DNA from: a virus
DNA: 22,338 nucleotides
Reading direction: 5' to 3' (one strand)
Virus genome (UHGV): UHGV-0114988
Below, in pieces: positions 1,886 through 13,828 of this stretch (within the stretch, counting starts at the first letter, position 1; every line of letters starts with the position of its first letter). Position numbers and translations under genes: made by a program. The notes under the pieces were generated by a model. It saw nothing but the letters and a program-made list of their open reading frames with translations, ran no database searches and was not told the origin of the DNA.

Positions 1886-3877
1886 TTATGATGATGCCCG
1901 GCTTTCGTTAACTTTGACTGTGACCGTATCAAGCAGTACCGGATACGTCGCTTTTGCCCCCGTGATATCTGTCAGCGTCAGCGTATCTGCTGTAAAGCCA
2001 TCATTTGTCCACATCACCAGGTCAAACGCAGACTGCTCTGTATCATCAATCACCGGCACCACTTTTTCGCTGTTATTTCCCGCAAAGCGGAAAACAACTG
2101 TATGCCAGTTATGGTCAAATGCCCCAAATGTGCCCAGTTGCGCATTCGACTCCCCCTTGTGGTACATCAGATTCAGATTTGATGCATCCGTCTGAAGGAA
2201 GAAGGACGCCAGCATGCTGTTTGCTGTCGCGCCTGACGCCCACTGCGACACCGGCCAGTACAGACCAAAGACAAACTGACCGTTAACCAGTTCGACACCC
2301 TCCGGGATCTTAAACCGCACGGCAATTTCACCTCCCTTACTGAGAAGATTTTTTGCCTCCTCCACCGCAACAGTACGGAACATCTTCCAGGAGGTCAGTT
2401 TACCCGGCTGTTTTTCCAGTCGCAGCGCCTTCCTGCCACTGTCATCCGTCACAGTGCCTTTACCACCGGACGCATTCCACTGCTGCTCTGTCCATACACC
2501 ACTGCCACTGTTCGCATCATATCCGGCCACCATTCTTGTTACGGCTTCAGTATGACCGCCTGCAGAAGTACCTGCACCCTGCTGTTGCGTCGGACCCGCA
2601 GAGCCAGACTGTGCATCCCCCGTGGAGGCTGGCGTGGTCGCCAGCGGTGCAGACTGCCCGCTCAGGAACGGCAGCAAACGCCCGGCTCGCACCAGTATCT
2701 CTCCTGCCAGCCGATCTGAAACAATGCCTCTTCGCGCCCAGGAGCTGAAGTGCGTTTTACGATCGGCTGTCGTCCAGTTACCATTACTGCGTGACGCGGC
2801 ACCATAGTATCCCGCCGTGATAATGTCCGGATCTTCTGACGGCTCGTTTGTCGGCACATTCGCACCATGCTCATCCGTCATCAACGGCACAAAGTGAATA
2901 TTCTGCGCCGCCTTGCCTTTATAGCCTCCGTAAACCGCCTCATACTGCACTGCATACTTCGCCTTCCAGTCGTACGTGGTGTCACCGCAAATCCACGGGA
3001 CGCCGGACGTTGTCCCGCCAATACACTGGTCTGCAATATCTGCCAAGTCTGCACGGTATTTATTTACCATGGCAAGAAAAAGTGCATTGTGCTCTGCATG
3101 TCTCCCCGAACTGACATCTTTTTCCCCCTGCATCCAGATCACCGACAACAGCACGTTTTTCGGATTTTTCTTCAGGGCTGCACGCGTTCTGCTGACCAGG
3201 TCACGATACAACGGTTTATCCACCCCCCACAGGGAAGAGCCCGCTGTCGCACCCGACGCCTCATTAAACGCGCCCTCTGCTCCCGCAGTAAATCCCGAAT
3301 CGCCACGTCCACACGGGACAAGAAGGATCCCCGCACGGGCAGGCATAAACGGCAGCAGTTTTTTGGCCACATGCAGGGCATGCCCCACACAGCCATACTG
3401 CCCTTTATTGAGGTCTGCTTTCGGGTGATTCAGATTACTCACGTCCTGCACATCATGCAGACAATGGTCTGCAGGAATAATGTCGTTATATGCACAGGCC
3501 GCACCGCCCGGTGTCACCGTGCTGCGACGCGCCAGTTGCTTAATACGCGGGTCAGGACGATCATACGTATCCGGCAGCGGCAGCCCCTCGCCAAAAGACA
3601 TCGAGTTGGACTGCCCGGCCAGCGCAATGACAAAGTAATATTCCGGTTCGCTGGTGGTGCTGATAACTGTGCCTTCTCCATCCGACGGCTTCACCACCAC
3701 AGGTGTGGTGACATTACCTTCTGCGACAATCGCCTGAATAAGTGCTGCGCCATCATCCGTATACGAAGAAAACGGCCCGCCGTATGGTTGCCATCCTTCA
3801 CGAATTTTTTGAGCAAGCGCATCCGCAAGGTCTGACGGCGATGCCGCCCTGACCACGTCATAGTGTTTAAATGCCAT
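1886..3877 (-). CDS. nanS-p: NanS-p-like prophage sialate 9-O-acetylesterase (SGNH/SASA-type hydrolase), 663 aa
   Basis: GQSN catalytic-serine motif (YFVIALAGQSNSMSFGE) and an N-terminal segment resembling the DUF1737-type region of EHEC prophage NanS-p proteins, from memory. Strong GGGAGG RBS before the ATG at 3877. Occupies the position downstream of Q/tRNA as in Stx-type phages. Confidence 0.75.
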   Translation of the reverse strand: MAFKHYDVVRAASPSDLADALAQKIREGWQPYGGPFSSYTDDGAALIQAIVAEGNVTTPVVVKPSDGEGTVISTTSEPEYYFVIALAGQSNSMSFGEGLPLPDTYDRPDPRIKQLARRSTVTPGGAACAYNDIIPADHCLHDVQDVSNLNHPKADLNKGQYGCVGHALHVAKKLLPFMPARAGILLVPCGRGDSGFTAGAEGAFNEASGATAGSSLWGVDKPLYRDLVSRTRAALKKNPKNVLLSVIWMQGEKDVSSGRHAEHNALFLAMVNKYRADLADIADQCIGGTTSGVPWICGDTTYDWKAKYAVQYEAVYGGYKGKAAQNIHFVPLMTDEHGANVPTNEPSEDPDIITAGYYGAASRSNGNWTTADRKTHFSSWARRGIVSDRLAGEILVRAGRLLPFLSGQSAPLATTPASTGDAQSGSAGPTQQQGAGTSAGGHTEAVTRMVAGYDANSGSGVWTEQQWNASGGKGTVTDDSGRKALRLEKQPGKLTSWKMFRTVAVEEAKNLLSKGGEIAVRFKIPEGVELVNGQFVFGLYWPVSQWASGATANSMLASFFLQTDASNLNLMYHKGESNAQLGTFGAFDHNWHTVVFRFAGNNSEKVVPVIDDTEQSAFDLVMWTNDGFTADTLTLTDITGAKATYPVLLDTVTVKVNESRASS

Positions 3878-4074
3878 GAATCCTCCCGGCCGGGATAATG
3901 TTGTGAGTCAGATAAGGGGCGGGCTGAAGTCCGGAAGTTACAGGACAATGACAGAAGGAAGACTACAGCCCGCAATACGAAAAAGGCCGCGCAGTTGCGC
4001 AGAGTGATTACTGTCGGGTATTATTCGCCAGCTGAAAAATTGATTACTTCACGTTTTGTTGTTTATTCCTTGCT

Positions 4075-4103
4075 GCCCGCGTCTCCCGGCGCGGGCTTTT
4101 TTT
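4075..4103 (+). terminator. Intrinsic-terminator-like hairpin (GCCCGCG-N8-CGCGGGC) plus TTTTTTT on + strand
   Basis: 7-bp GC stem, 8-nt loop and 7-T tract read directly; no U-tract on the minus strand. Confidence 0.4.
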
Positions 4104-4442
4104 GCATGTAAAAAGGCTCCTGCGATGAGGAGCCTGGATATATGCCTAATCTCTGTATACAGCATGATGCCGGGTGCCTCCCGGTGAGTTCAGTATCAGC
4201 ACCTGAACCCGCACCAGATAAGGGATATAACCAACCACCTGTCGCTGATATGCCCCTCCGCACAGGGGGATTCACCATGCCAGTTTCTTTTAACAAATAC
4301 TCAGTCTGACAGGCAACTGTCAACTGACTGAATTGTGAGACATTTAAAATTTTCGGGGCATGACTGATACCCGGCTAACCACCTGATGCTTCCTTTTTTA
4401 GCAACAAACAGGTCCACCAAAGTGAGACAGAAAAAATAAGTG

Positions 4443-4519
4443 TGGCGCGTTGTACTGGATTCGAACCAGTGACCGATTGCTTAGAAGGCAATTGCTCTGT
4501 CCGGCTGAGCTAACAACGC
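4443..4519 (-). tRNA. tRNA-Arg (anticodon UCU), 77 nt
   Basis: Minus-strand sequence GCGTTGTTAGCTCAGCCGGACAGAGCAATTGCCTTCTAAGCAATCGGTCACTGGTTCGAATCCAGTACAACGCGCCA folds as a cloverleaf: 7-bp acceptor stem, anticodon stem ATTGC/GCAAT with loop CTTCTAA, T-arm ACTGG-TTCGAAT-CCAGT, and an encoded CCA. Confidence 0.85.
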
Positions 4520-4630
4520 ATGAAGTTTTCTGTAATCATCCTCGTTTGGTAACTGCCACTGGCTGACACTGAACCAGTGCGATGTCATGTTTTTCTTTCC
4601 TGTTTTATTAATTTTTCCCCAGCAGAAGAC

Positions 4631-4660
4631 AAGAAAAAAGGTTCCGGTGTTATCGGAACC
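4631..4660 (-). terminator. Minus-strand hairpin (GGTTCCG-N7-CGGAACC) followed by TTTTTTCTT; candidate tR'-like terminator or pause structure
   Basis: Perfect 7-bp stem with a U-tract on the minus strand, 30-60 nt downstream of the Q stop codon. Confidence 0.4.
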
Positions 4661-4679
4661 TTTCAGCAGTAAGCATACA

Positions 4680-4685
4680 ATTATA
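4680..4685 (-). promoter_or_regulatory. Consensus -10 hexamer TATAAT on minus strand just downstream of Q (candidate late promoter pR' -10 / Q-utilisation region)
   Basis: TATAAT read on the minus strand 5-10 nt after the Q stop. No convincing -35 was found, so this is tentative. Confidence 0.25.
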
Positions 4686-4689
4686 GACG

Positions 4690-5112
4690 TTATAACCATA
4701 ACATATTTTTTTGTGCGCACACAACCCTTTCAGGTAGTACAACTTCAGGATCCATATCCAACCTTACTCCCTGCAGAGTCAGAGCTCCTTCCAGAAATGC
4801 TTCAGACGCCTTCAGGGATGTCCGTACGCTAAAATGACTACGGTCTATCGCCTCAGCAATTGCACGCGTTGAGAGGCCGCCTATAAAACGTAACCCCAAG
4901 ATCAGCAAATCATCGTACGGGCAAACCATACTCATATGCGCGATGCAGGTATCAATCACCGCTCCATCCTCGTCAGAGCAACCGGGTTTGCCACTGTCGG
5001 TTACGTCCCGGGAAGTAACCGACATTGAGGGCCAGTCAACCATTGAACAGTATTCCTCGCTCGCCGCCCATCGCCCCCACCGCTCCAGAACAAGTTGCAT
5101 ATCTCTACGCAT
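4690..5112 (-). CDS. Q: Late-gene antiterminator Q (phage 21/933W-type Q family)
   Basis: N-terminus MRRDMQLVLERWGRWAA resembles 21/933W-type Q proteins as recalled. Position is immediately upstream of the tRNA/late lysis region. Confidence 0.65.
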   Translation of the reverse strand: MRRDMQLVLERWGRWAASEEYCSMVDWPSMSVTSRDVTDSGKPGCSDEDGAVIDTCIAHMSMVCPYDDLLILGLRFIGGLSTRAIAEAIDRSHFSVRTSLKASEAFLEGALTLQGVRLDMDPEVVLPERVVCAQKNMLWL

Positions 5113-5242: not shown

Positions 5243-5433
5243 TGGAACCACCTGCCCCCACCTGGAACCACCTTTTCCTAACCTTTCCCTCAATCGACTT
5301 ATATATATATATGGGGTTTCTAGTAGAAAGGCGGTTCCAGTGGTTCCAGTAGTTCCGCCCCGCTTGCCACAAGGTCTGCAAGGTGGAACCACCTTCTCTT
5401 TTAGGTGGTTCCGCATGGTTCCAGCGGTTCCCA
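5243..5433. repeat. Iteron array with central (AT)7 tract; candidate replication origin
   Basis: The 11-mer TGGAACCACCT occurs directly at 5243, 5263 and 5384, and inverted (AGGTGGTTCC) at 5403. Three tandem 9-mers GGTTCCAGT lie at 5333-5356, with further GGTTCC units at 5417-5433. The tract TATATATATATAT lies at about 5298-5312. The array sits immediately 3' of the primase-helicase gene and overlaps its last codons. Confidence 0.55.
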
Positions 5434-7587
5434 AACCTTGCATTTTTTCCCCCCAATTCGCCTTTGGGCACGCTTATACCCGCAATTTTGCAAAACATTA
5501 CTAATTCGCATTTCTTCGCGTTTTCCGATGCGGTCAGGATTTAGCCCAATCGCATCACGCAAAACATCACTTGCGCGTAAAAATTCGCAATTTCGCGGAA
5601 GTTCATTAGTCATCAGGTCGGGCGTGTCGAGCCATTTCTCTACCGTTTCAAGCCAAGCATCCTTGATGGTGTACTGTTCATGGACACTCGCTGCCAGTTG
5701 TTCAGCCTCACGGAACTGGATACCCCCCAGACGCTGAAACACCTCACGAGCCTCAGCCCAAAGTAAAAGGAGATCTCTTTTTATCGCTTTCACGTCGACT
5801 TTCGACACTTCCACGGGGAGCCAGCGACGGTTACCAGTCTTGTCCGCAAGGAATTCGTCCTCATTGGTGGTACCAACGAACAGCAGGCGACGAGGAAACT
5901 GGGTGGCGAACTCCCGGTATTTCGGGATCCAGTTTTCGTGAGTACGCGTCACAAACGCTTTGATTGACTCCAGCTCTTTGGTATTAAGTCCGCGCAGTTC
6001 ACCAATCTCTGCCACCAGCCGACCACGCATTTTTCGAGCGAGATCATCGTCTTTTTCGGCAAAAGAGATTTCAGTAAAAAACGCAGGATCAGGGCTCAGT
6101 GCCTCCACTCCGGAAGACTTACCGCAGCCCTGCGGACCAACGAGGATCGGCACCATATCCGCTTTGATGCCTGGCTCCAGTACTCGCCCCGCCAACGCGG
6201 TCCACATGTACATAGACACCGCACGGGTATAAGGCGTGTCGGCGGTACCGAAGTGCGTATGGTAGAAACATTCGATGCGCGGCACGCCATCCCACTCCAG
6301 TCCGTTCAGCCAGGTGATCGCTGAATCGAATGGTTGTTCATCGGCTGCAAGTAACACCACATCGCGAATAAGTTCACGGCCAACAGGTTTAAATCCCCGC
6401 TTTTCCATCGTGATGCGCAGGCGCGCATAATCCGCATCGGTGAATGCCCGCCATTGTCCGGATCCTGCCGGGGCAAACATGATTTCGTCGCGGAACTGGT
6501 CAAAGCGAATATCGATGTCCACAAAATCAGGACGTACTACTGCTTTGGCTGCGTTGCTGATGGTTGCCTCGATACGCCCCCATTTATCACGCTCGAAAGC
6601 AGGCAGCGGTAAAGGTTCCGCCACTTCGATGCTGGTCAGATCTTCGAAATCGTCGTTGCGGATCCCGATGGCATTCAGGAAATCTCCGTCATCACGATGC
6701 GCGCAACTGGCATGCAGGCATTTAAAATGCCCCTGCTCAAAGCCTGCGGTTCCCGCAGGAAAATAAACTGTGCTTGTTGGATCGCCTCCGCTACTGTGGC
6801 CGTCTTCAAACGGACAGCGGATATATCGTTCACCGTTTGCACCATCCAGCAGCGTCCAGCCATTGGCATCAAGATATTCAGCTGTATCATCCGTCGCGCC
6901 GGGCGTGAATGCTGAACGGTCGCGCATCTTCGTGTTGCCCGCTTCGGTGGTTACCGACACAGGGAGTTGTTCAGCCAGGCGCTGCCACAGCGTTTCAAGC
7001 TGCTCACCTGTAATAGCCGGAGGTTCATCCGGCAAACCACCGTCCCATTCAATACGCGCGCCGCTGCTGTGCGTACCACAGGCAACGAACTGCTGCCCGT
7101 TCGCCAGCAACTCGATAATGCCCATATCCCCCGCCAGGCGATGGATACGCTTACGGAAATCACCATCAACGGCCAGCAGATACAGACACTTATTACTGTT
7201 TGCTCGCCAGCGTCGCGGCGGCGACTCACCCAGAAGTTGCACAAGTGTTTTGCGAATATCTGCCTGAATGTCTTCATCTTCGCTATCGCAGTCCAGCGCC
7301 AGCCAGCCATGGCCTGTACGCACGCAGATGCCATAATCCGGTTCATTCGACCAGCGGGCAAAATCATGCTCAGTAACAACATGCCCGGTCCATTGAGCAA
7401 TACCGGTGACCTGGCGGTCCCGGTTATAGCGACTCGGCGTCTTACCCAACGCTTTCAATTTACTATCAGGGGATATGGTCGCACTGGGGTTACATACAAC
7501 TGGGAGAAGATGAGCAGTCCGCCCCAATACCAGGTCGAAATGAAACCACTCATCAGGCGTAGCTCCCCATGTTTTGCTATCGGACAT
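5401..7587 (-). CDS. Replication primase-helicase: N-terminal PrimPol/AEP-like domain fused to a VirE / P4-alpha-type Walker-A NTPase domain, 728 aa
   Basis: Acidic DxD-type motif (WLALDCDSEDED) in the N-terminal half. Walker A ILVGPQGCGKSSG and surrounding region resemble phage/plasmid primase P4-family C-terminal (VirE-like) domains. AAGGTG RBS; ATG at 7587 directly follows the cro-like stop. Confidence 0.8.
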   Translation of the reverse strand: MSDSKTWGATPDEWFHFDLVLGRTAHLLPVVCNPSATISPDSKLKALGKTPSRYNRDRQVTGIAQWTGHVVTEHDFARWSNEPDYGICVRTGHGWLALDCDSEDEDIQADIRKTLVQLLGESPPRRWRANSNKCLYLLAVDGDFRKRIHRLAGDMGIIELLANGQQFVACGTHSSGARIEWDGGLPDEPPAITGEQLETLWQRLAEQLPVSVTTEAGNTKMRDRSAFTPGATDDTAEYLDANGWTLLDGANGERYIRCPFEDGHSSGGDPTSTVYFPAGTAGFEQGHFKCLHASCAHRDDGDFLNAIGIRNDDFEDLTSIEVAEPLPLPAFERDKWGRIEATISNAAKAVVRPDFVDIDIRFDQFRDEIMFAPAGSGQWRAFTDADYARLRITMEKRGFKPVGRELIRDVVLLAADEQPFDSAITWLNGLEWDGVPRIECFYHTHFGTADTPYTRAVSMYMWTALAGRVLEPGIKADMVPILVGPQGCGKSSGVEALSPDPAFFTEISFAEKDDDLARKMRGRLVAEIGELRGLNTKELESIKAFVTRTHENWIPKYREFATQFPRRLLFVGTTNEDEFLADKTGNRRWLPVEVSKVDVKAIKRDLLLLWAEAREVFQRLGGIQFREAEQLAASVHEQYTIKDAWLETVEKWLDTPDLMTNELPRNCEFLRASDVLRDAIGLNPDRIGKREEMRISNVLQNCGYKRAQRRIGGKKCKVWEPLEPCGTT

Positions 7588-7590
7588 GGG

Positions 7591-7791
7591 TTACACCTTT
7601 TGTCTAGCTGTCACTTCCTGAAAAAGTTTTTCTATCGCACGTACTGTAGAAAAGCGAGGGTCAGAATGAACCCCGGTAAGAAGCCGACTAATAGAAGACT
7701 GCTTCACGCCTGCAATTTCGGCAATTTGGTTTTGGGTATACCCTGAATCAATCAAGCTTTTGACCATCTCTTGTGGTGTTAGTCCGGACAT
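7591..7791 (-). CDS. Cro-like small HTH DNA-binding protein (66 aa)
   Basis: HTH-like segment YTQNQIAEIAGVKQSSISRLLTG. Divergent from the CI-like repressor, first gene of the minus-strand early operon, GGAGA RBS. Confidence 0.6.
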   Translation of the reverse strand: MSGLTPQEMVKSLIDSGYTQNQIAEIAGVKQSSISRLLTGVHSDPRFSTVRAIEKLFQEVTARQKV

Positions 7792-7932
7792 ATTTAAGTC
7801 TCCACTTTCGTCTATAGCGCAAATTTATACGAAAACGGATTACCCAGCAATACAGCAATTCTATGTCATCCTAGATTAAAATATCCGATAACGCATAATC
7901 ACCGTCCCTGTATACAACATGGATGAATCCAA
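7792..7932. promoter_or_regulatory. Divergent promoter/operator region between cro-like and cI-like genes
   Basis: 141-bp intergenic region containing a minus-strand TATAAAT (+ strand 7823-7829), the palindrome TGTATACA (about 7909-7916), and the motif GATAACGCATAATCA (7887-7901) that recurs twice downstream of cI. Confidence 0.5.
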
Positions 7933-8607
7933 ATGATTGATACTACCGATATCCTTTCTCAAAACATCAAGTACCTGATGGACAAAGCCAAGATAAGCTC
8001 GATAACTGAGCTGGCACGTCGGTTACAGCTGAACCAACCAACGCTACACAGGCTGGTATCAGGAGAGGTGAAAGATCCGAAATACGCAACGTTAAAGCAG
8101 ATCGCCGACTACTTCCACGTGTCACCAATAGACTTGGCAGAAAGGAGCCTTCAAGAAATGGAGAAAGAGGACGCGACAGGTATAAAAACGTATATTTCTC
8201 TTAGGTTTAATAAAGTACCTGTTTTGGGAAACACTCAGCTAGGCGTTGGAGGACTTTGGAGCGACACCCAATATTCAGTAGGTAGCAGTGATGGTTTCAT
8301 ATACTGGCCGACAAAGGATGAAGATGCATACGCCCTGAAATGTGTTGGTGATTCAATGATGCCTAGAATCAAAGAGGGGGAGTTCGTAATCGTCGAACCC
8401 AACCACGACTACACTCCTGGTGATGAAGTACTTGTGGTTACCCGGGACGGTGAGGTCATGGTTAAAACCTTCTTGTTCGAACGCGATGGCCTGTTCCATC
8501 TAATGTCTGTAAATGAAGATCATCCACCAGTCAGAGTACCACGCGAAAACATTGAAAAAATCCATTACGTGGCGGGGATCGCCAAATCCGCGCTACGTAT
8601 GTACTAA
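7933..8607 (+). CDS. cI: CI-like prophage repressor: N-terminal HTH plus C-terminal LexA/S24-type autopeptidase domain
   Basis: N-terminal HTH (SITELARRLQLNQPTLHRLVSG); C-terminal GDSMMP (Ser nucleophile) and VMVKTF (Lys) consistent with an S24 Ser-Lys dyad; 224 aa. Confidence 0.85.
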   Translation: MIDTTDILSQNIKYLMDKAKISSITELARRLQLNQPTLHRLVSGEVKDPKYATLKQIADYFHVSPIDLAERSLQEMEKEDATGIKTYISLRFNKVPVLGNTQLGVGGLWSDTQYSVGSSDGFIYWPTKDEDAYALKCVGDSMMPRIKEGEFVIVEPNHDYTPGDEVLVVTRDGEVMVKTFLFERDGLFHLMSVNEDHPPVRVPRENIEKIHYVAGIAKSALRMY

Positions 8608-8640
8608 CCTTTACAGTCTGATAACTTACTTCTGATCAAA

Positions 8641-8670
8641 CCGCTCTCCACAAGGGCGGTTTTCTTATTT
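8641..8670 (+). terminator. Intrinsic terminator after cI (CCGCTC-loop-GGGCGG plus TTTTCTTATTT)
   Basis: 6-bp stem (including one G-U pair) followed by a T-rich run, 34 nt after the cI stop. Confidence 0.45.
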
Positions 8671-8691
8671 GCAAAATAATTCATTTTCGCA

Positions 8692-8721
8692 TTGACACAA
8701 AATCCCATAACGCATATAAAT
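8692..8721 (+). promoter_or_regulatory. Near-consensus sigma70 promoter (TTGACA-17 nt-TATAAA(T)); candidate early-left pL-type promoter, overlapped by operator-like repeats
   Basis: TTGACA at 8692-8697, 17-nt spacer, TATAAA at 8715-8720. Motifs CATAACGCATATAAA (8706-8720) and GATATCGCATAATCA (8724-8738) overlap the -10 and start region; the latter matches the cro/cI intergenic site at 14 of 15 positions. Confidence 0.5.
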
Positions 8722-8756
8722 ACGATATCGCATAATCAATGCATTTTTTAATACTG

Positions 8757-8768
8757 GCTCTTTAACAA
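8757..8768 (+). promoter_or_regulatory. boxA-like antitermination element GCTCTTTAACAA
   Basis: 12-nt identity to the rrn-type boxA core (UGCUCUUUAACAA) as recalled, about 35 nt downstream of the predicted start of the pL-like promoter. Confidence 0.4.
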
Positions 8769-8913
8769 ACTAAACCGCGTGACAGGTAAGCCGCAGTACT
8801 CCTGGCAAAATGAAATGGCACCCGATGGGATCGAGGTAAGCGCCGAGTCCGTATGCGTACGGTAAGCGTAGAGGACAACACCGCGACAAACTGATAAGTC
8901 ACGCAAGTTGAAA

Positions 8914-8944
8914 CGCCCCGACGATGGGGCGCTTAGTTCCTTTT
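8914..8944. terminator. Hairpin CGCCCC-GACGAT-GGGGCG with U-rich flanks (terminator-like, possibly bidirectional)
   Basis: 6-bp GC stem; CTTAGTTCCTTTT follows on + strand and TTTCAACTT on - strand. Lies about 80 nt 3' of the minus-strand gene 9026..9550 and about 190 nt downstream of the pL-like start. Confidence 0.35.
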
Positions 8945-9025
8945 GGGGTGGGGTGAAGATCAGTCCATTGAGTCAATCCGAAGTTCAGCATCTACCACTA
9001 CACCACCACCAAAGAGAACTGCTAA

Positions 9026-9550
9026 TCATCTGGCAGGTTGTAACGGTGCAGGAATTTTGCCACTGACTTCTATATTTCGGGGAAATTTATATTCAGCGGA
9101 GCATTTATGACACTTGAGAATTTTATAAGCGGCATTAGAAGTATGGTATTGAAGTATAGACTTCATACCCGACTCATAGCATGTAGTACAAAGATAATGA
9201 GGCTTGAACTCAGGATCGTCAGTAGGCTTCAGTACATAGACCACCGTATTGGTAATCGGGTGGTACATTTCATAGTTCATTTTCTCACTATCCCAATCCT
9301 GTTTCTTTTCCAGAAGGGATTCGAGTTCAACAATGCGCTGTTTAGCTTCGTTCAAAAGCTCCGTTAGTGCGAATTGTCCAGTACGCGCATCAATTAGTTT
9401 ATCAAGTAGATCGATAGTTTTACTTTTAACATTGTAATCCACCTGCAACGCATTAACTTCTTTTGCTAAATCAACAGCACCTTTCAAAGCACCACCAGCA
9501 CTAGTGGCCGCCTCAGTTATACGCCGTACAAGTCCTTTTTCTTCAGACAT
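9026..9550 (-). CDS. Hypothetical coiled-coil protein with C-terminal Cys4 zinc ribbon (174 aa); moron-like gene opposed to the early-left operon
   Basis: ATG ORF; N-terminal 100 aa predicted helical/coiled-coil; CxxC...CxxC (CTTCYE...CHKCSAEY) at the C-terminus. No family recognised. Confidence 0.55.
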   Translation of the reverse strand: MSEEKGLVRRITEAATSAGGALKGAVDLAKEVNALQVDYNVKSKTIDLLDKLIDARTGQFALTELLNEAKQRIVELESLLEKKQDWDSEKMNYEMYHPITNTVVYVLKPTDDPEFKPHYLCTTCYESGMKSILQYHTSNAAYKILKCHKCSAEYKFPRNIEVSGKIPAPLQPAR

Positions 9551-12720: not shown

Positions 12721-13063
12721 GCAAAGGGGAATATGCCCAGAGCTACCTGTATTGTTCTGGTTAGCACCCAGTCGCCCTGCTACCCCGATATTGACTCATC
12801 GCCCCCTTCCGGTTTATGCTCACCGAATCTCCCAAATGGAGATCGGGATTTGCAACCCGGAATTGTTAGGGGCGACACCAGACGCGCCAGCGTCTTTTTT
12901 ATTGTCGCAAGCTTTGCCACGTTCGCATTATGGCGGGCTGGCGGGGGCGCTTCGGCGCGCCGGTTTCCTCTAACGCCGGTATTGCAAACCTCGTCAGTTC
13001 GCCACCCATATGAGATTTGCAACTCAGTGGTGGCGGTGAATTTCACCGTTAGAGGTAACTGTG

Positions 13064-13828
13064 ATGGCAACTCAGCTCATCCCCGTTTTCAACGGCGCTA
13101 TCGCCAACGAAACCACCCTGCTCTGCAATGCTCGCGATCTGCACGCATTCCTTGGGGTAGGGAAAGTGTTTGCAGCGTGGATTACATCACGAATTGCAGA
13201 CTATGAATTCGTTGAAAATCAGGATTATATCGTAACGTTTTCCAAAACTGGAAAGCGTAAAAATGTTCTTTGTAAGGACTACCACCTCACTCTCGATACA
13301 GCCAAAGAACTGGCGATGGTGGAGCGCAACGAAAAAGGCCGCCAGATCCGCCGATACTTCATCGAGTGCGAAAAGAAACTTCGCCAGCAATCCTCCACGA
13401 TACTGGCGCCACACAGGGAGTGTCTGCCGAAGATGGTTTACCATCACCGGAGCAAATACAATCCGTACAGGGCTTATGCATGGGACGGAGAGAAAAGCGT
13501 TTACGTCGGGTGCTATCCGACTGTGGATGAGGCTGTCGCTGCTCAGGAACGCTTCTACCGGAACGGCAGCACGAAACGCATTCAGAAGGCGCAGACAGCA
13601 GTCAGTGACGCAGAGAAGGAAATGTTCATCAACAATCTCCGCGCCGTCTGCCATAACTTCCGGCGCATCAATGAAATCTGGCGGGCGCAGTTAATGCCTG
13701 CTCTCGAAAAAATGGATTCGAAACTGGTTTACCAGCTGCATGACCGCTTCAGCGACAGCATGTGCATTCTGCCGACCATAGAAGACCGCATCGGCAGATA
13801 TATTCCGCCGTCACAGCTTCCACACTAA
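13064..13828 (+). CDS. AntA-family antirepressor-like protein with uncharacterised C-terminal domain (254 aa from ATG; track start is GTG at 13061)
   Basis: N-terminal region (ARDLHAFLGVGKVFAAWITSRIADYEFVENQDY ... YHLTLDTAKELAMVERNEKGRQIRRYFIECEKKL) resembles the AntA/AntB N-terminal domain as recalled. AGAGG RBS. Confidence 0.6.
   Translation: MATQLIPVFNGAIANETTLLCNARDLHAFLGVGKVFAAWITSRIADYEFVENQDYIVTFSKTGKRKNVLCKDYHLTLDTAKELAMVERNEKGRQIRRYFIECEKKLRQQSSTILAPHRECLPKMVYHHRSKYNPYRAYAWDGEKSVYVGCYPTVDEAVAAQERFYRNGSTKRIQKAQTAVSDAEKEMFINNLRAVCHNFRRINEIWRAQLMPALEKMDSKLVYQLHDRFSDSMCILPTIEDRIGRYIPPSQLPH

Follow-up and report, generated by a model that had tools for sequence, protein, structure and literature searches.

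Candidate OR- and OL-type operators of a lambda/434-type CI/Cro switch in an Escherichia coli prophage

In the switch of phage 434, as in those of lambda and P22, a repressor composed of a helix–turn–helix (HTH) and an S24 peptidase domain is accompanied by a small divergent Cro protein, and several adjacent operators lie over the −35, −10 and +1 elements of the early promoters flanking cI, with one half of each site nearer to consensus and a boxA after the early promoter. The operators of 434 span 14 bp with two-fold symmetry, their outer bases being conserved and their centre variable, and repressors of the HTH plus S24 type act as dimers. The same organisation, including 14 bp sites with this symmetry, is found in the DNA analysed here, a 22,338 bp stretch which we refer to as the window. 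We think it likely that a motif found on both sides of its cI-like gene represents the OR-type and OL-type operators of a CI/Cro switch of the lambda/434 type in an E. coli prophage. The switch appears to be of the ordinary lambda type, leaving unchanged the understanding of how such switches work, and its operator sequence had previously not been written down. This sequence, ATNCG-W4-CGNAT, sets it apart from 434, lambda and P22. Further differences from lambda are the presence of two clear sites in the cro/cI spacer rather than three, a second early promoter that follows cI directly with no rexAB or N between them (no N-like gene was identified), and replication genes for a VapE primase, a DUF2800 nuclease and a PolA-type polymerase in place of O and P. 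Compared with the lambdoid CI proteins in the phage collection, the CI encoded here is at most ~34% identical (H-19B type).

Closer relatives are the Yersinia phage YeP4 and the Hamiltonella phages APSE-1 to APSE-8 (Sendosyvirus), to whose CI proteins that of the window is 61% and ~50% identical, respectively, and which have the same order of cro, cI, promoter and boxA. The 14 bp frame recurs in them as well, both in the post-cI promoter and at matching distances from the starts of cro and cI. They differ in that their half-sites lean to ATGCA/ATGCG; YeP4 has three spacer sites and the APSE sites are more degenerate. The operators of the YeP4 and APSE phages are not described in the papers searched (the word 'operator' occurs 0 times in PMC8579659), and a literature search on operators of APSE, YeP4, BPP-1-like phages or vB_EcoM-606R2 found nothing relevant.

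The cro-like gene, taken from the ORF list (7591–7791, minus strand), encodes a 66 aa protein with an HTH_3 domain (Pfam, E = 1.2e-9) that falls in PHROG 6831, a transcriptional regulator, and is 62% identical to its YeP4 counterpart, with the helix QSSISRLLTG in common. It is the first gene of a leftward operon that continues, by the order in relatives, with the VapE primase/helicase, Q, and lysis and head genes. The cI-like repressor gene (7933–8607, plus strand) encodes 224 aa with an N-terminal Cro/C1-type HTH (residues 11–71; Pfam HTH_26, E = 3.7e-12, and HTH_3, E = 1.3e-6) and a C-terminal S24 peptidase domain (residues 96–208; Pfam Peptidase_S24, E = 2.6e-18; PHROG 4), in which the Ser/Lys dyad of Ser141 (GDSMMPRI) and Lys178 (VMVKTF) is invariant across the family alignment. 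The self-cleavage motif of LexA and lambda repressors is P..G...AG, and hand alignment to this motif brings an invariant Gln102-Leu103-Gly104 into register, with Leu-Gly at the place in the linker where Ala-Gly (or Cys-Gly) is expected. A search for a solved structure of a close CI relative gave only weak matches to the C-domain of LexA. Cro and the N-terminus of CI both carry ...RL(L/V)(T/S)G..DP(R/K).... The prophage also encodes a P1-type C4/isrK RNA and AntA antirepressor module, with AntA at 13061–13828.

A sequence-only reading of this DNA had reported three near-identical 15-mers, one in the cI–cro control region and two overlapping the −10 and start region of the strong promoter 3′ of cI. 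Direct reading places all three where they were reported: GATAACGCATAATCA at 7887–7901, inside the cro/cI control region, and CATAACGCATATAAA at 8706–8720 and GATATCGCATAATCA at 8724–8738, overlapping the −10 (TATAAA, 8715–8720) and start region of the post-cI promoter. The term near-identical holds for the first and third copies, which agree at 14 of 15 positions (one difference), and fails for the second, which matches the first at 11 of 15, the modal value among shuffles, and has in common with it only the exact 10-mer ATAACGCATA. When the 141 bp between cro and cI is compared with the 153 bp that follows cI, the best common 15-mer scores 14/15, a match attained in only 2 of 300 dinucleotide shuffles. 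Across the whole window, the 15-mer as written gives only two matches at up to three mismatches (12 of 100 shuffles give two or more), and its 10-mer core gives four at up to one mismatch against 2.26 expected, which is not significant. Each 15-mer consists of the right half of a 14 bp dyad, ATNCG-WWWW-CGNAT, and variable flank; the operator starts 4 bp further left than the 15-mer in each case, and the final five 15-mer bases (AATCA) are variable. Statistical significance arises only from this re-registered dyad, and not from the 15-mer.

The search for further copies yields five dyad sites in the two control regions of the window, the same five being present in the relative ON470579; the three sites first noticed are among them, and those at 7827–7840 and 8679–8692 had been missed. 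In the cro/cI spacer, OR-a (ATACGAAAACGGAT, 7827–7840) is a perfect dyad match that fits the pattern on both strands, is invariant in 11 homoimmune variants save for the N position 7838, and is colinear with the YeP4 site ATCCGAAAACGCAT, the distance from site to cro ATG being 35 nt here and 36 nt in YeP4. It lies on the −10 of a candidate cro (PR-like) promoter (7824–7850, minus strand), for which direct reading gives a −35 of TTGCTG (7850–7845) and a −10 of either TATAAA (7829–7824, 15 nt spacer) or TAAATT (7827–7822, 17 nt spacer), and which was aligned by hand with TTGATA-17-TAGTTT of YeP4. OR-b (ATCCGATAACGCAT, 7883–7896) is likewise a perfect match, with the first 15-mer formed by its right part and five flanking bases, and its block AATATCCGATAACGCATA is kept even in the homoimmune relative L025, despite diverged flanks and the replacement of AATCA. 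From the end of OR-b to the cI ATG is 36 nt, compared to 35 nt for ATGCAAATTCGCAT of YeP4. A candidate cI (PRM-like) promoter, also read directly, spans 7872–7899 on the plus strand as TAGATT (7872–7877), 16 nt and CATAAT (7894–7899), with a weak −35; an alternative −10, TAAAAT at 7877–7882, becomes TACAAT in L025, and both candidate −10s overlap or abut OR-b. Since the cro and cI promoters are weak consensus matches, the pairing of site and promoter in this spacer is uncertain; weak hexamer matches and the colinearity with YeP4 point to the overlaps given here. Two further candidates in the spacer were rejected: an OR2-like middle site at 7850–7863 (ATACAGCAATTCTA), of which only the left half (ATACA) is conserved and where some relatives do have a middle site, and a fourth 15-mer copy at 7812–7826 (CTATAGCGCAAATTT, 10/15), which has no dyad fit, varies among close relatives and is gone in L025.

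On the other side of cI, a terminator-like hairpin (8638–8662, plus strand), with a 10-pair stem that includes 5 G–C pairs and then the T-run TCTTATTT, precedes an early PL-like promoter (8692–8720, plus strand) with TTGACA (8692–8697), a 17 nt spacer and TATAAA (8715–8720). By direct reading it matches 11 of 12 bases of the sigma-70 consensus, and both hexamers are invariant in 10 of the 11 homoimmune variants (L001 has TTGACG). A consensus promoter scan of the window called neither this promoter nor those of the cro/cI spacer; the former was missed because the scan demands T at position 6 of the −10, and all promoter assignments were therefore made by direct reading and comparison. Three sites are found here, as against the two clear ones in the spacer, and their overlap with the core elements at 8692–8720 (−35 edge, spacer and +1) is clear. 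OL-c (ATTCATTTTCGCAT, 8679–8692), with one dyad mismatch, abuts or overlaps the −35; it retains the frame AT.C......G.AT in L025 (ATACAATTATGAAT) and has positional counterparts in relatives at ~+58 to +72 past the cI stop. OL-b (ATCCCATAACGCAT, 8702–8715), also with one mismatch, occupies the promoter spacer and reaches the first base of the −10, and together with the −10 its right part forms the second 15-mer; its variation among relatives is confined to N and centre positions, and YeP4 carries ATGCAATATCGCAT at this place in its own promoter. OL-a (ATACGATATCGCAT, 8720–8733) is a perfect match that runs from the last −10 base across the expected start site, is symmetric at 6 of 7 dyad pairs and varies only at centre and N positions. 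The third 15-mer is its right part with five flanking bases, and its YeP4 counterpart, ATGCGTTAACGGAT, has the same 18 bp spacing from the previous site.

The pattern ATNCGNNNNCGNAT has three perfect matches in the 22,338 bp, all within the two control regions; shuffles average 0.405 and never exceed 3. When up to one mismatch is allowed in the dyad with an A/T centre, there are six matches against 0.73 expected, five of them being the sites described above, and a count of six was attained in 0 of 100 shuffles; the 42.7 kb relative ON470579 has eight against 1.63 expected, comprising the same five and three scattered ones. These three are no more than chance would give, and the scan predicts no CI sites beyond the two regions. 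Individual sites are only modestly symmetric, at 1 to 6 of 7 dyad pairs, the left half is mismatched in two of the five (8679 and 8702), and the better half, CGCAT, has the same strand and orientation in all five. The defining positions were picked from the window's own sites, a choice on which the conservation, family and swap tests do not depend.

Among 11 distinct homoimmune sequences, including L025 with its diverged flanks and a CI 74% identical to that of the window, 39 of 40 defining positions are invariant, compared to 92 of 169 neighbouring non-coding, non-site positions (Fisher p = 2.8e-8), and comparison of the defining with the N and centre positions within the sites gives p = 2e-4. 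For the wider family we used the 43 loci found by a scan of viral contigs with an alignment; a scan of genome contigs with a single CI protein gave just four. When all dyads in 21 non-redundant relatives were enumerated without bias, ATTC-N6-GAAT came out at the top (21 in control regions, 0 outside), together with ATGC-N6-GCAT (15 in control regions, 2 outside), which is the same 14 bp frame. For this frame, AT.C......G.AT, there are 86 occurrences in the 8,400 bp of control regions and 7 in the 64,463 bp outside them, which amounts to 94-fold enrichment, and the distances that separate the sites in relatives from the start and stop of cI are conserved. The half-site goes with the recognition helix of CI: (N/H)QPTLHR is found with AT[ACG]CG, QQST[LM][HQ]R with ATGC[AG] and IPQPT[MF]HRL with ATTCA (43 of 50 half-sites). 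The existence, symmetry, placement and conservation of the sites are shown by these data, as is their co-variation with the immunity module.

The proposal of the sequence-only reading, that OR-type and OL-type sites are recognised by the same repressor, is supported by every computational test applied: the clustering of the sites on the two control regions only, their conservation footprint, the conserved position and the co-variation of half-site and helix, and an immunity swap described below. Dimers of the CI-like repressor would most likely read the 14 bp imperfect palindrome via two HTH units, and recognition by the small Cro-like protein is also probable, given the likeness of its recognition helix to that of CI. 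In a lysogen, bound CI would silence both early operons, the leftward one with cro, the primase gene, Q and the late genes, and the rightward one with boxA-led recombination and replication genes. In this predicted regulatory logic OR-a would act on the candidate cro promoter and OR-b on the candidate cI promoter, where it could serve autoregulation or be a target for Cro, and the three OL sites, at the −35, in the spacer and over the start site, would cover the strong early promoter. The identity of the binding protein is itself a prediction, as are the transcription starts in the cro/cI spacer, and it is conceivable, if unlikely, that these are real operators read mainly by another regulator, either Cro alone or a host factor, with CI acting elsewhere. 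In the heteroimmune relative Cro is exchanged along with CI, which leaves the swap unable to tell them apart, and the Cro helix of the window is conserved in YeP4, a phage with similar half-sites. However, dyad enumeration in the control regions found no second repeated dyad, a lysogen needs CI to silence both early promoters and only these elements are conserved there, and it was against the CI helix that the co-variation was scored.

The sites had also been described as not obviously palindromic, with direct repeats or imperfect half-sites as possibilities; the second of these is borne out, in the form of imperfect palindromes, and the first is not. A mechanism like that of P2 C or P1 C1, in which monomers or head-to-tail oligomers recognise the 15-mer asymmetrically, would suit the uniform orientation of the better half and the 14/15 agreement of the 15-mers at 7887 and 8724, but we regard it as very unlikely. 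The AATCA tail outside the dyad varies in homoimmune variants, whereas the left half AT.CG, which the 15-mer omits, is invariant; the site at 7827–7840 fits on both strands; the sites of relatives are plainly palindromic (e.g. ATTCA-N4-TGAAT and ATGCA-N4-TGCAT); and HTH plus S24 proteins such as this one are known to act as dimers. Unlike the direct-repeat operators of P2 C, the conserved positions here form a dyad and it is the asymmetric tail that is variable.

Assignment of the sites to CI and Cro is further favoured by a natural immunity swap. The heteroimmune E. coli relatives L007 and L008 have the same prophage backbone as the window (primase 95% identical, same early leader). They resemble it in topology as well, with one copy of a motif in the spacer between cro and cI and a second copy flanked by the −35 and −10 of the post-cI promoter. 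They differ in having a LexA-family CI of 209 aa, unrelated cI and cro, and an unrelated operator of ~18 bp, TTACAGGTTTACTTGTAA. In L008, whose CI is 26% identical to that of the window and whose Cro is unrelated, TTACAGGTTTACTTGTA has one copy in the spacer and another flanked by the −35 and −10 downstream of cI, where 0.01 is expected; the window's operator sites are absent, and the motif has been replaced at both places together with cI/cro. The same comparison bears on whether the sites are replication-origin iterons for the adjacent VapE primase/helicase, a reading prompted by a misc_feature in the APSE-2 record LR794152 that marks the cro/cI spacer as 'putative origin of replication region', and compatible with the A/T-rich site centres and the position of the primase gene. 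It is nevertheless highly improbable, given that a 95% identical primase is found in L008 with a different motif at both places, that three of the five sites fall exactly on the −35, spacer and +1 of a promoter that lies beyond cI at a distance of 800 bp, and that the half-site co-varies with the CI recognition helix. Chance likeness or shared promoter grammar in A/T-rich intergenic DNA (−10-like CATAAT, TATAAA), with no dedicated site, is already disfavoured and hardly credible: the unremarkable counts of the 15-mer and its core, and the presence of CATAAT inside the first and third copies, would fit it, but what is conserved is the CG dinucleotides and outer AT of the dyad rather than the −10-like tail, no shuffle reached six dyad matches, and the frame is enriched family-wide.

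Read as CI/Cro operators, the five sites provide a concrete definition, ATNCG-W4-CGNAT, for a prophage present in ~65 of 5,426 complete E. coli genomes, with carriers that include ETEC H10407, IAI1 and O103:H2 12009, and this definition extends to the immunity modules of Yersinia YeP4-like and APSE phages. The APSE phages carry toxins that protect aphids, and the annotated 'putative origin' in their cro/cI spacer may be, at least in part, an operator region. The co-variation of half-site and helix would also aid the sequence-based prediction of superinfection immunity groups. A more tentative reading, which we consider possible and no better than that, joins a fixed-frame code with antirepressor-led induction in the CI group of APSE, YeP4 and the E. 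coli yfhL prophage. There would be one fixed 14 bp frame, AT-N-C-N-N4-N-G-N-AT, with specificity arising from half-site positions 3 and 5, and these would change together with the neighbours of the conserved Gln in the recognition helix (N-Q-P, residues 34–36, in the CI of the window), pairing N/H-Q-P with ATnCG, Q-Q-S with ATGCR and P-Q-P-T-M/F with ATTCA; if true, this would amount to a small natural recognition code. Induction may proceed via an antirepressor rather than RecA-stimulated cleavage, as suggested by the Leu-Gly at the expected cleavage site and the C4/isrK RNA/AntA module.

Approximately 30–40 nt into the early transcript lies a boxA-like element, GCTCTTTAACAA (8757–8768, plus strand), which we take to be the rrn boxA consensus and which is conserved in E. 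coli, Yersinia and APSE relatives. The leader at 8727–8950 has no Rfam match for a structured RNA even at E up to 5, and folds no better than shuffles (z = +0.61). The boxA-like element is also the boundary at which the immunity module stops and sequence common to heteroimmune relatives starts, and 39 E. coli records match the window at 8757–8943 only.

The window belongs to an E. coli prophage: its segment 7560-9000 shares 99.4% identity with prophages of ETEC H10407, IAI1, O103:H2 12009 and others, is matched in 104 of 5,426 complete genomes (65 of these across most of the query) and has 98% identity with the induced phage vB_EcoM-606R2 (ON470579). A CI-like gene (7933-8607, plus strand; 224 aa, Cro/C1 HTH and S24 peptidase domains) diverges here from a Cro-like HTH gene (7591-7791, minus strand; 66 aa), after which the same strand carries a VapE primase/helicase (5401-7587). 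Beyond cI lie a terminator-like hairpin (8638-8662), a near-consensus promoter (TTGACA at 8692-8697, 17 nt, TATAAA at 8715-8720), a boxA-like element (8757-8768) and a reverse moron ORF (9026-9550, minus strand); the rightward early genes encode a DUF2800 nuclease, an Enc34-type ssDNA-binding protein and a DNA polymerase. The leftward operon of relatives comprises cro and the primase and then continues into Q, lysis and head genes, and therefore the cro promoter and the promoter after cI drive two early operons, in agreement with the sequence-only reading.

That reading had also described three near-identical 15-mers (7887-7901, 8706-8720 and 8724-8738) as OR- and OL-type operators. Their coordinates are exact on direct reading, and the first and third copies differ by one base, a 14/15 match between two non-coding stretches that 2 of 300 dinucleotide shuffles attain, whereas the second agrees with the first at 11 of 15 positions, the modal shuffle value, the two having the exact 10-mer ATAACGCATA in common. 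Searches of the window with the 15-mer and the 10-mer as written give no significant excess of either. Alignment of the copies with their left flanks, and comparison with the Yersinia phage YeP4 (CI 61% identical, same layout), gave as their common unit a 14-bp imperfect palindrome, ATNCG-WWWW-CGNAT, that begins 4 bp before each 15-mer. The AATCA that ends the 15-mer varies among homoimmune sequences (those with the same or near-same CI), and the left half which it omits is invariant.

Five such sites occur, two in the cro/cI spacer, ATACGAAAACGGAT (7827-7840) and ATCCGATAACGCAT (7883-7896), and three at the promoter after cI, ATTCATTTTCGCAT (8679-8692), ATCCCATAACGCAT (8702-8715) and ATACGATATCGCAT (8720-8733). 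The motif ATNCGNNNNCGNAT has three perfect matches in 22,338 bp, all among these five (shuffle mean 0.405). With an A/T centre and at most one mismatch the window holds six matches against 0.73 expected, five of them being the five sites, and 0 of 100 shuffles reach six. ON470579 (42.7 kb) has the same five sites and three scattered matches, with 1.63 expected; the whole-prophage motif search proposed earlier, made with the 14-bp dyad on this related 42.7-kb phage record, thus revealed no additional cluster.

A scan of viral contigs yielded 43 loci, 14 of them with the same or near-same CI, and these together with ON470579 and the window represent 11 distinct sequences of both control regions, including one (L025) with a 74% identical CI and largely diverged non-coding DNA. 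Among these 11 the defining positions (eight per site, five sites) are invariant at 39 of 40, as against 92 of 169 other non-coding positions (Fisher, p = 2.8e-8) and 19 of 30 soft positions (N and centre) inside the sites (p = 2e-4). An additional copy at 7812-7826 was dropped, as it is not conserved among homoimmune relatives.

The wider family was represented by 21 non-redundant relatives (CI identity 50-100%) from E. coli, Yersinia-like phages, Hamiltonella APSE phages and others, in which dyads with all 4- and 5-nt half-sites and gaps of 0-10 nt were counted inside and outside both control regions. The top dyads, ATTC-N6-GAAT (21 inside, 0 outside) and ATGC-N6-GCAT (15 and 2), both fit the 14-bp frame, and the control regions (8,400 bp) contain AT.C......G.AT 86 times, compared with seven times in 64,463 bp elsewhere, a 94-fold enrichment. 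The frame recurs ~92 and ~36 nt upstream of the cI ATG, with a third position at ~69 nt in some loci, and at ~+58 to +72, +95 and +113 after the cI stop. The half-site varies with the CI recognition helix: (N/H)QPTLHR accompanies AT[ACG]CG, QQST[LM][HQ]R accompanies ATGC[AG] and IPQPT[MF]HRL accompanies ATTCA (43 of 50 half-sites). Six viral contigs with the last helix (L036, L043-L047; ~1386-1470 and ~2218-2275) have very regular operators, ATTCA-N4-TGAAT, with three or four sites in the cro/cI spacer, spaced 23 and 32 bp from start to start, and a pair after cI at a distance of 39 or 41 bp; this architecture is cleaner than the window's and would make a good experimental model. An Enterobacteriaceae MAG (L003, 2347-3500) encodes a 63% identical CI homologue with operator-like sites upstream, followed directly by a Cys-rich, ferredoxin-like ORF that we take to be yfhL; yfhL adjoins the integrase end of the H10407 prophage, and the locus resembles a prophage remnant in the same attachment site.

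After cI, the site at 8679-8692 touches the -35, that at 8702-8715 occupies the promoter spacer up to the -10, and that at 8720-8733 spans the last -10 base through the expected start, their centres being 23 and 18 bp apart. The promoters proposed within the cro/cI spacer are weak matches that a consensus promoter scan missed, and the transcription starts there are predicted ones. The site at 7827-7840 lies 35 nt from the cro ATG (36 nt for its YeP4 counterpart, ATCCGAAAACGCAT); each follows a TTG-type hexamer (TTGCTG in the window, TTGATA in YeP4) by 4 nt and overlaps a -10-like word (TATAAA/TAAATT and TAGTTT, respectively), a combination that we take for the putative cro promoter with an operator within its spacer. 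The site at 7883-7896, 36 nt from the cI ATG (35 nt in YeP4), overlaps a candidate cI promoter, TAGATT-16-CATAAT, or abuts a -10, TAAAAT, at 7877-7882. Between them, a block at 7848-7859, CAATACAGCAAT, is kept in all homoimmune variants, the diverged L025 included; it has a left half-site, ATACA, where other family members have a middle operator, and also TTGCTG on the minus strand, and may act as a weak cooperative site or as part of a promoter.

A natural exchange of immunity is found among 39 E. coli records whose match is limited to the leader 3' of the promoter (8757-8943), two of which (L007 and L008) share the prophage type but have another immunity module. The L008 primase is 95% identical to the window's, its CI is 26% identical and its Cro is unrelated. 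ATNCG sites are absent from both, and L008 has one TTACAGGTTTACTTGTA in the cro/cI spacer and another between -35 and -10 of the promoter after cI (0.01 expected); the motif at each place has therefore been exchanged along with cI and cro, as would be expected of operators.

The sequences show the existence, symmetry, placement, conservation and co-variation of the sites, and this swap; these are best read as marks of the operators of a lambda/434-type switch, an assignment that we regard as probably correct. CI, the presumed binding protein, would bind the five dyads as dimers, repressing the rightward early promoter from the three sites that cover its core and the leftward cro promoter from 7827-7840, with 7883-7896 serving autoregulation of cI or the action of Cro. 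Cro probably reads the same sites, because its HTH, paralogous to the N-terminal domain of CI, has a similar helix, which is conserved in YeP4; binding by Cro alone, or by another factor, is the nearest alternative. Origin iterons are a further, unlikely one, and the cro/cI spacer of APSE-2 (LR794152; L011, 1840-1940) is indeed annotated 'putative origin of replication region'; however, sites in the operator frame, ATACCAATTCGCAT and ATGCGTAAAAGTAT, lie in that region, which is therefore probably an operator region at least in part, and in L008 the motif changed with cI and cro beside a primase that is 95% identical. The same joint replacement speaks against general promoter grammar. Recognition as direct repeats, suggested when only the 15-mers were in view, is unlikely in view of the palindromic unit, and chance resemblance is the least likely, in view of the shuffle counts.

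As an operator switch the system would work like those of 434 and lambda, with operators of 14 bp, and its membership of the CI/Cro kind follows from domain architecture and gene arrangement; unlike them, its spacer has only two clear sites and its replication module is of the APSE/YeP4/BPP-1 type. CI retains Ser141 and Lys178, and has a family-invariant Gln-Leu-Gly at residues 102-104 (8236-8244), which we presume, from alignment by hand to the LexA/lambda motif, to be the expected Ala-Gly self-cleavage position; the difference is for that reason a lead only. The searchable literature yielded no account of these operators, and no solved structure came close. The operator set, though unsurprising, helps annotation and the prediction of immunity groups.

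The boxA-like GCTCTTTAACAA is located 30-40 nt from the start of the early transcript and precedes a ~175-nt leader, the two (8757-8943) being 85-99% conserved in the 39 E. coli prophages, which have unrelated immunity regions; in one, the lambdoid prophage L009, the element lies upstream of gam/bet, and YeP4 and APSE retain boxA alone. The leader has no Rfam match and folds no better than shuffles (z = +0.61), and no N-like gene is evident. The 9026-9550 ORF (174 aa, PHROG 1244, Cys-rich with CxxC pairs) separates, in antisense orientation, the early promoter from the first of the rightward early genes; a reverse ORF also accompanies the conserved leader in heteroimmune relatives and in L009, where its annotation reads 'ECs_2282 family putative zinc-binding protein'. 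BoxA and leader may be a nut- or put-like antitermination site for read-through of this ORF.

Rfam isrK (12827-12900) and C4 antisense RNA (12926-13009), followed by an AntA/AntB antirepressor ORF (13061-13828), constitute a P1/P7-type immI-like antirepressor module, which occupies the place of a reverse hypothetical gene in the H10407 relative, so the window's prophage may have a second control layer over CI. The late-region start (1886-5112, minus strand) resembles that of Stx/lambdoid phages, with a Q antiterminator (4690-5112, minus strand), a tRNA (4446-4519), an sRNA of the STnc100 family (4104-4309, 174.6 bits) and a DUF1737/SASA esterase of nanS-p type (1886-3877, minus strand). STnc100, directly downstream of Q, could be a late-promoter leader RNA. 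This region is arranged differently in the H10407 and 606R2 relatives.
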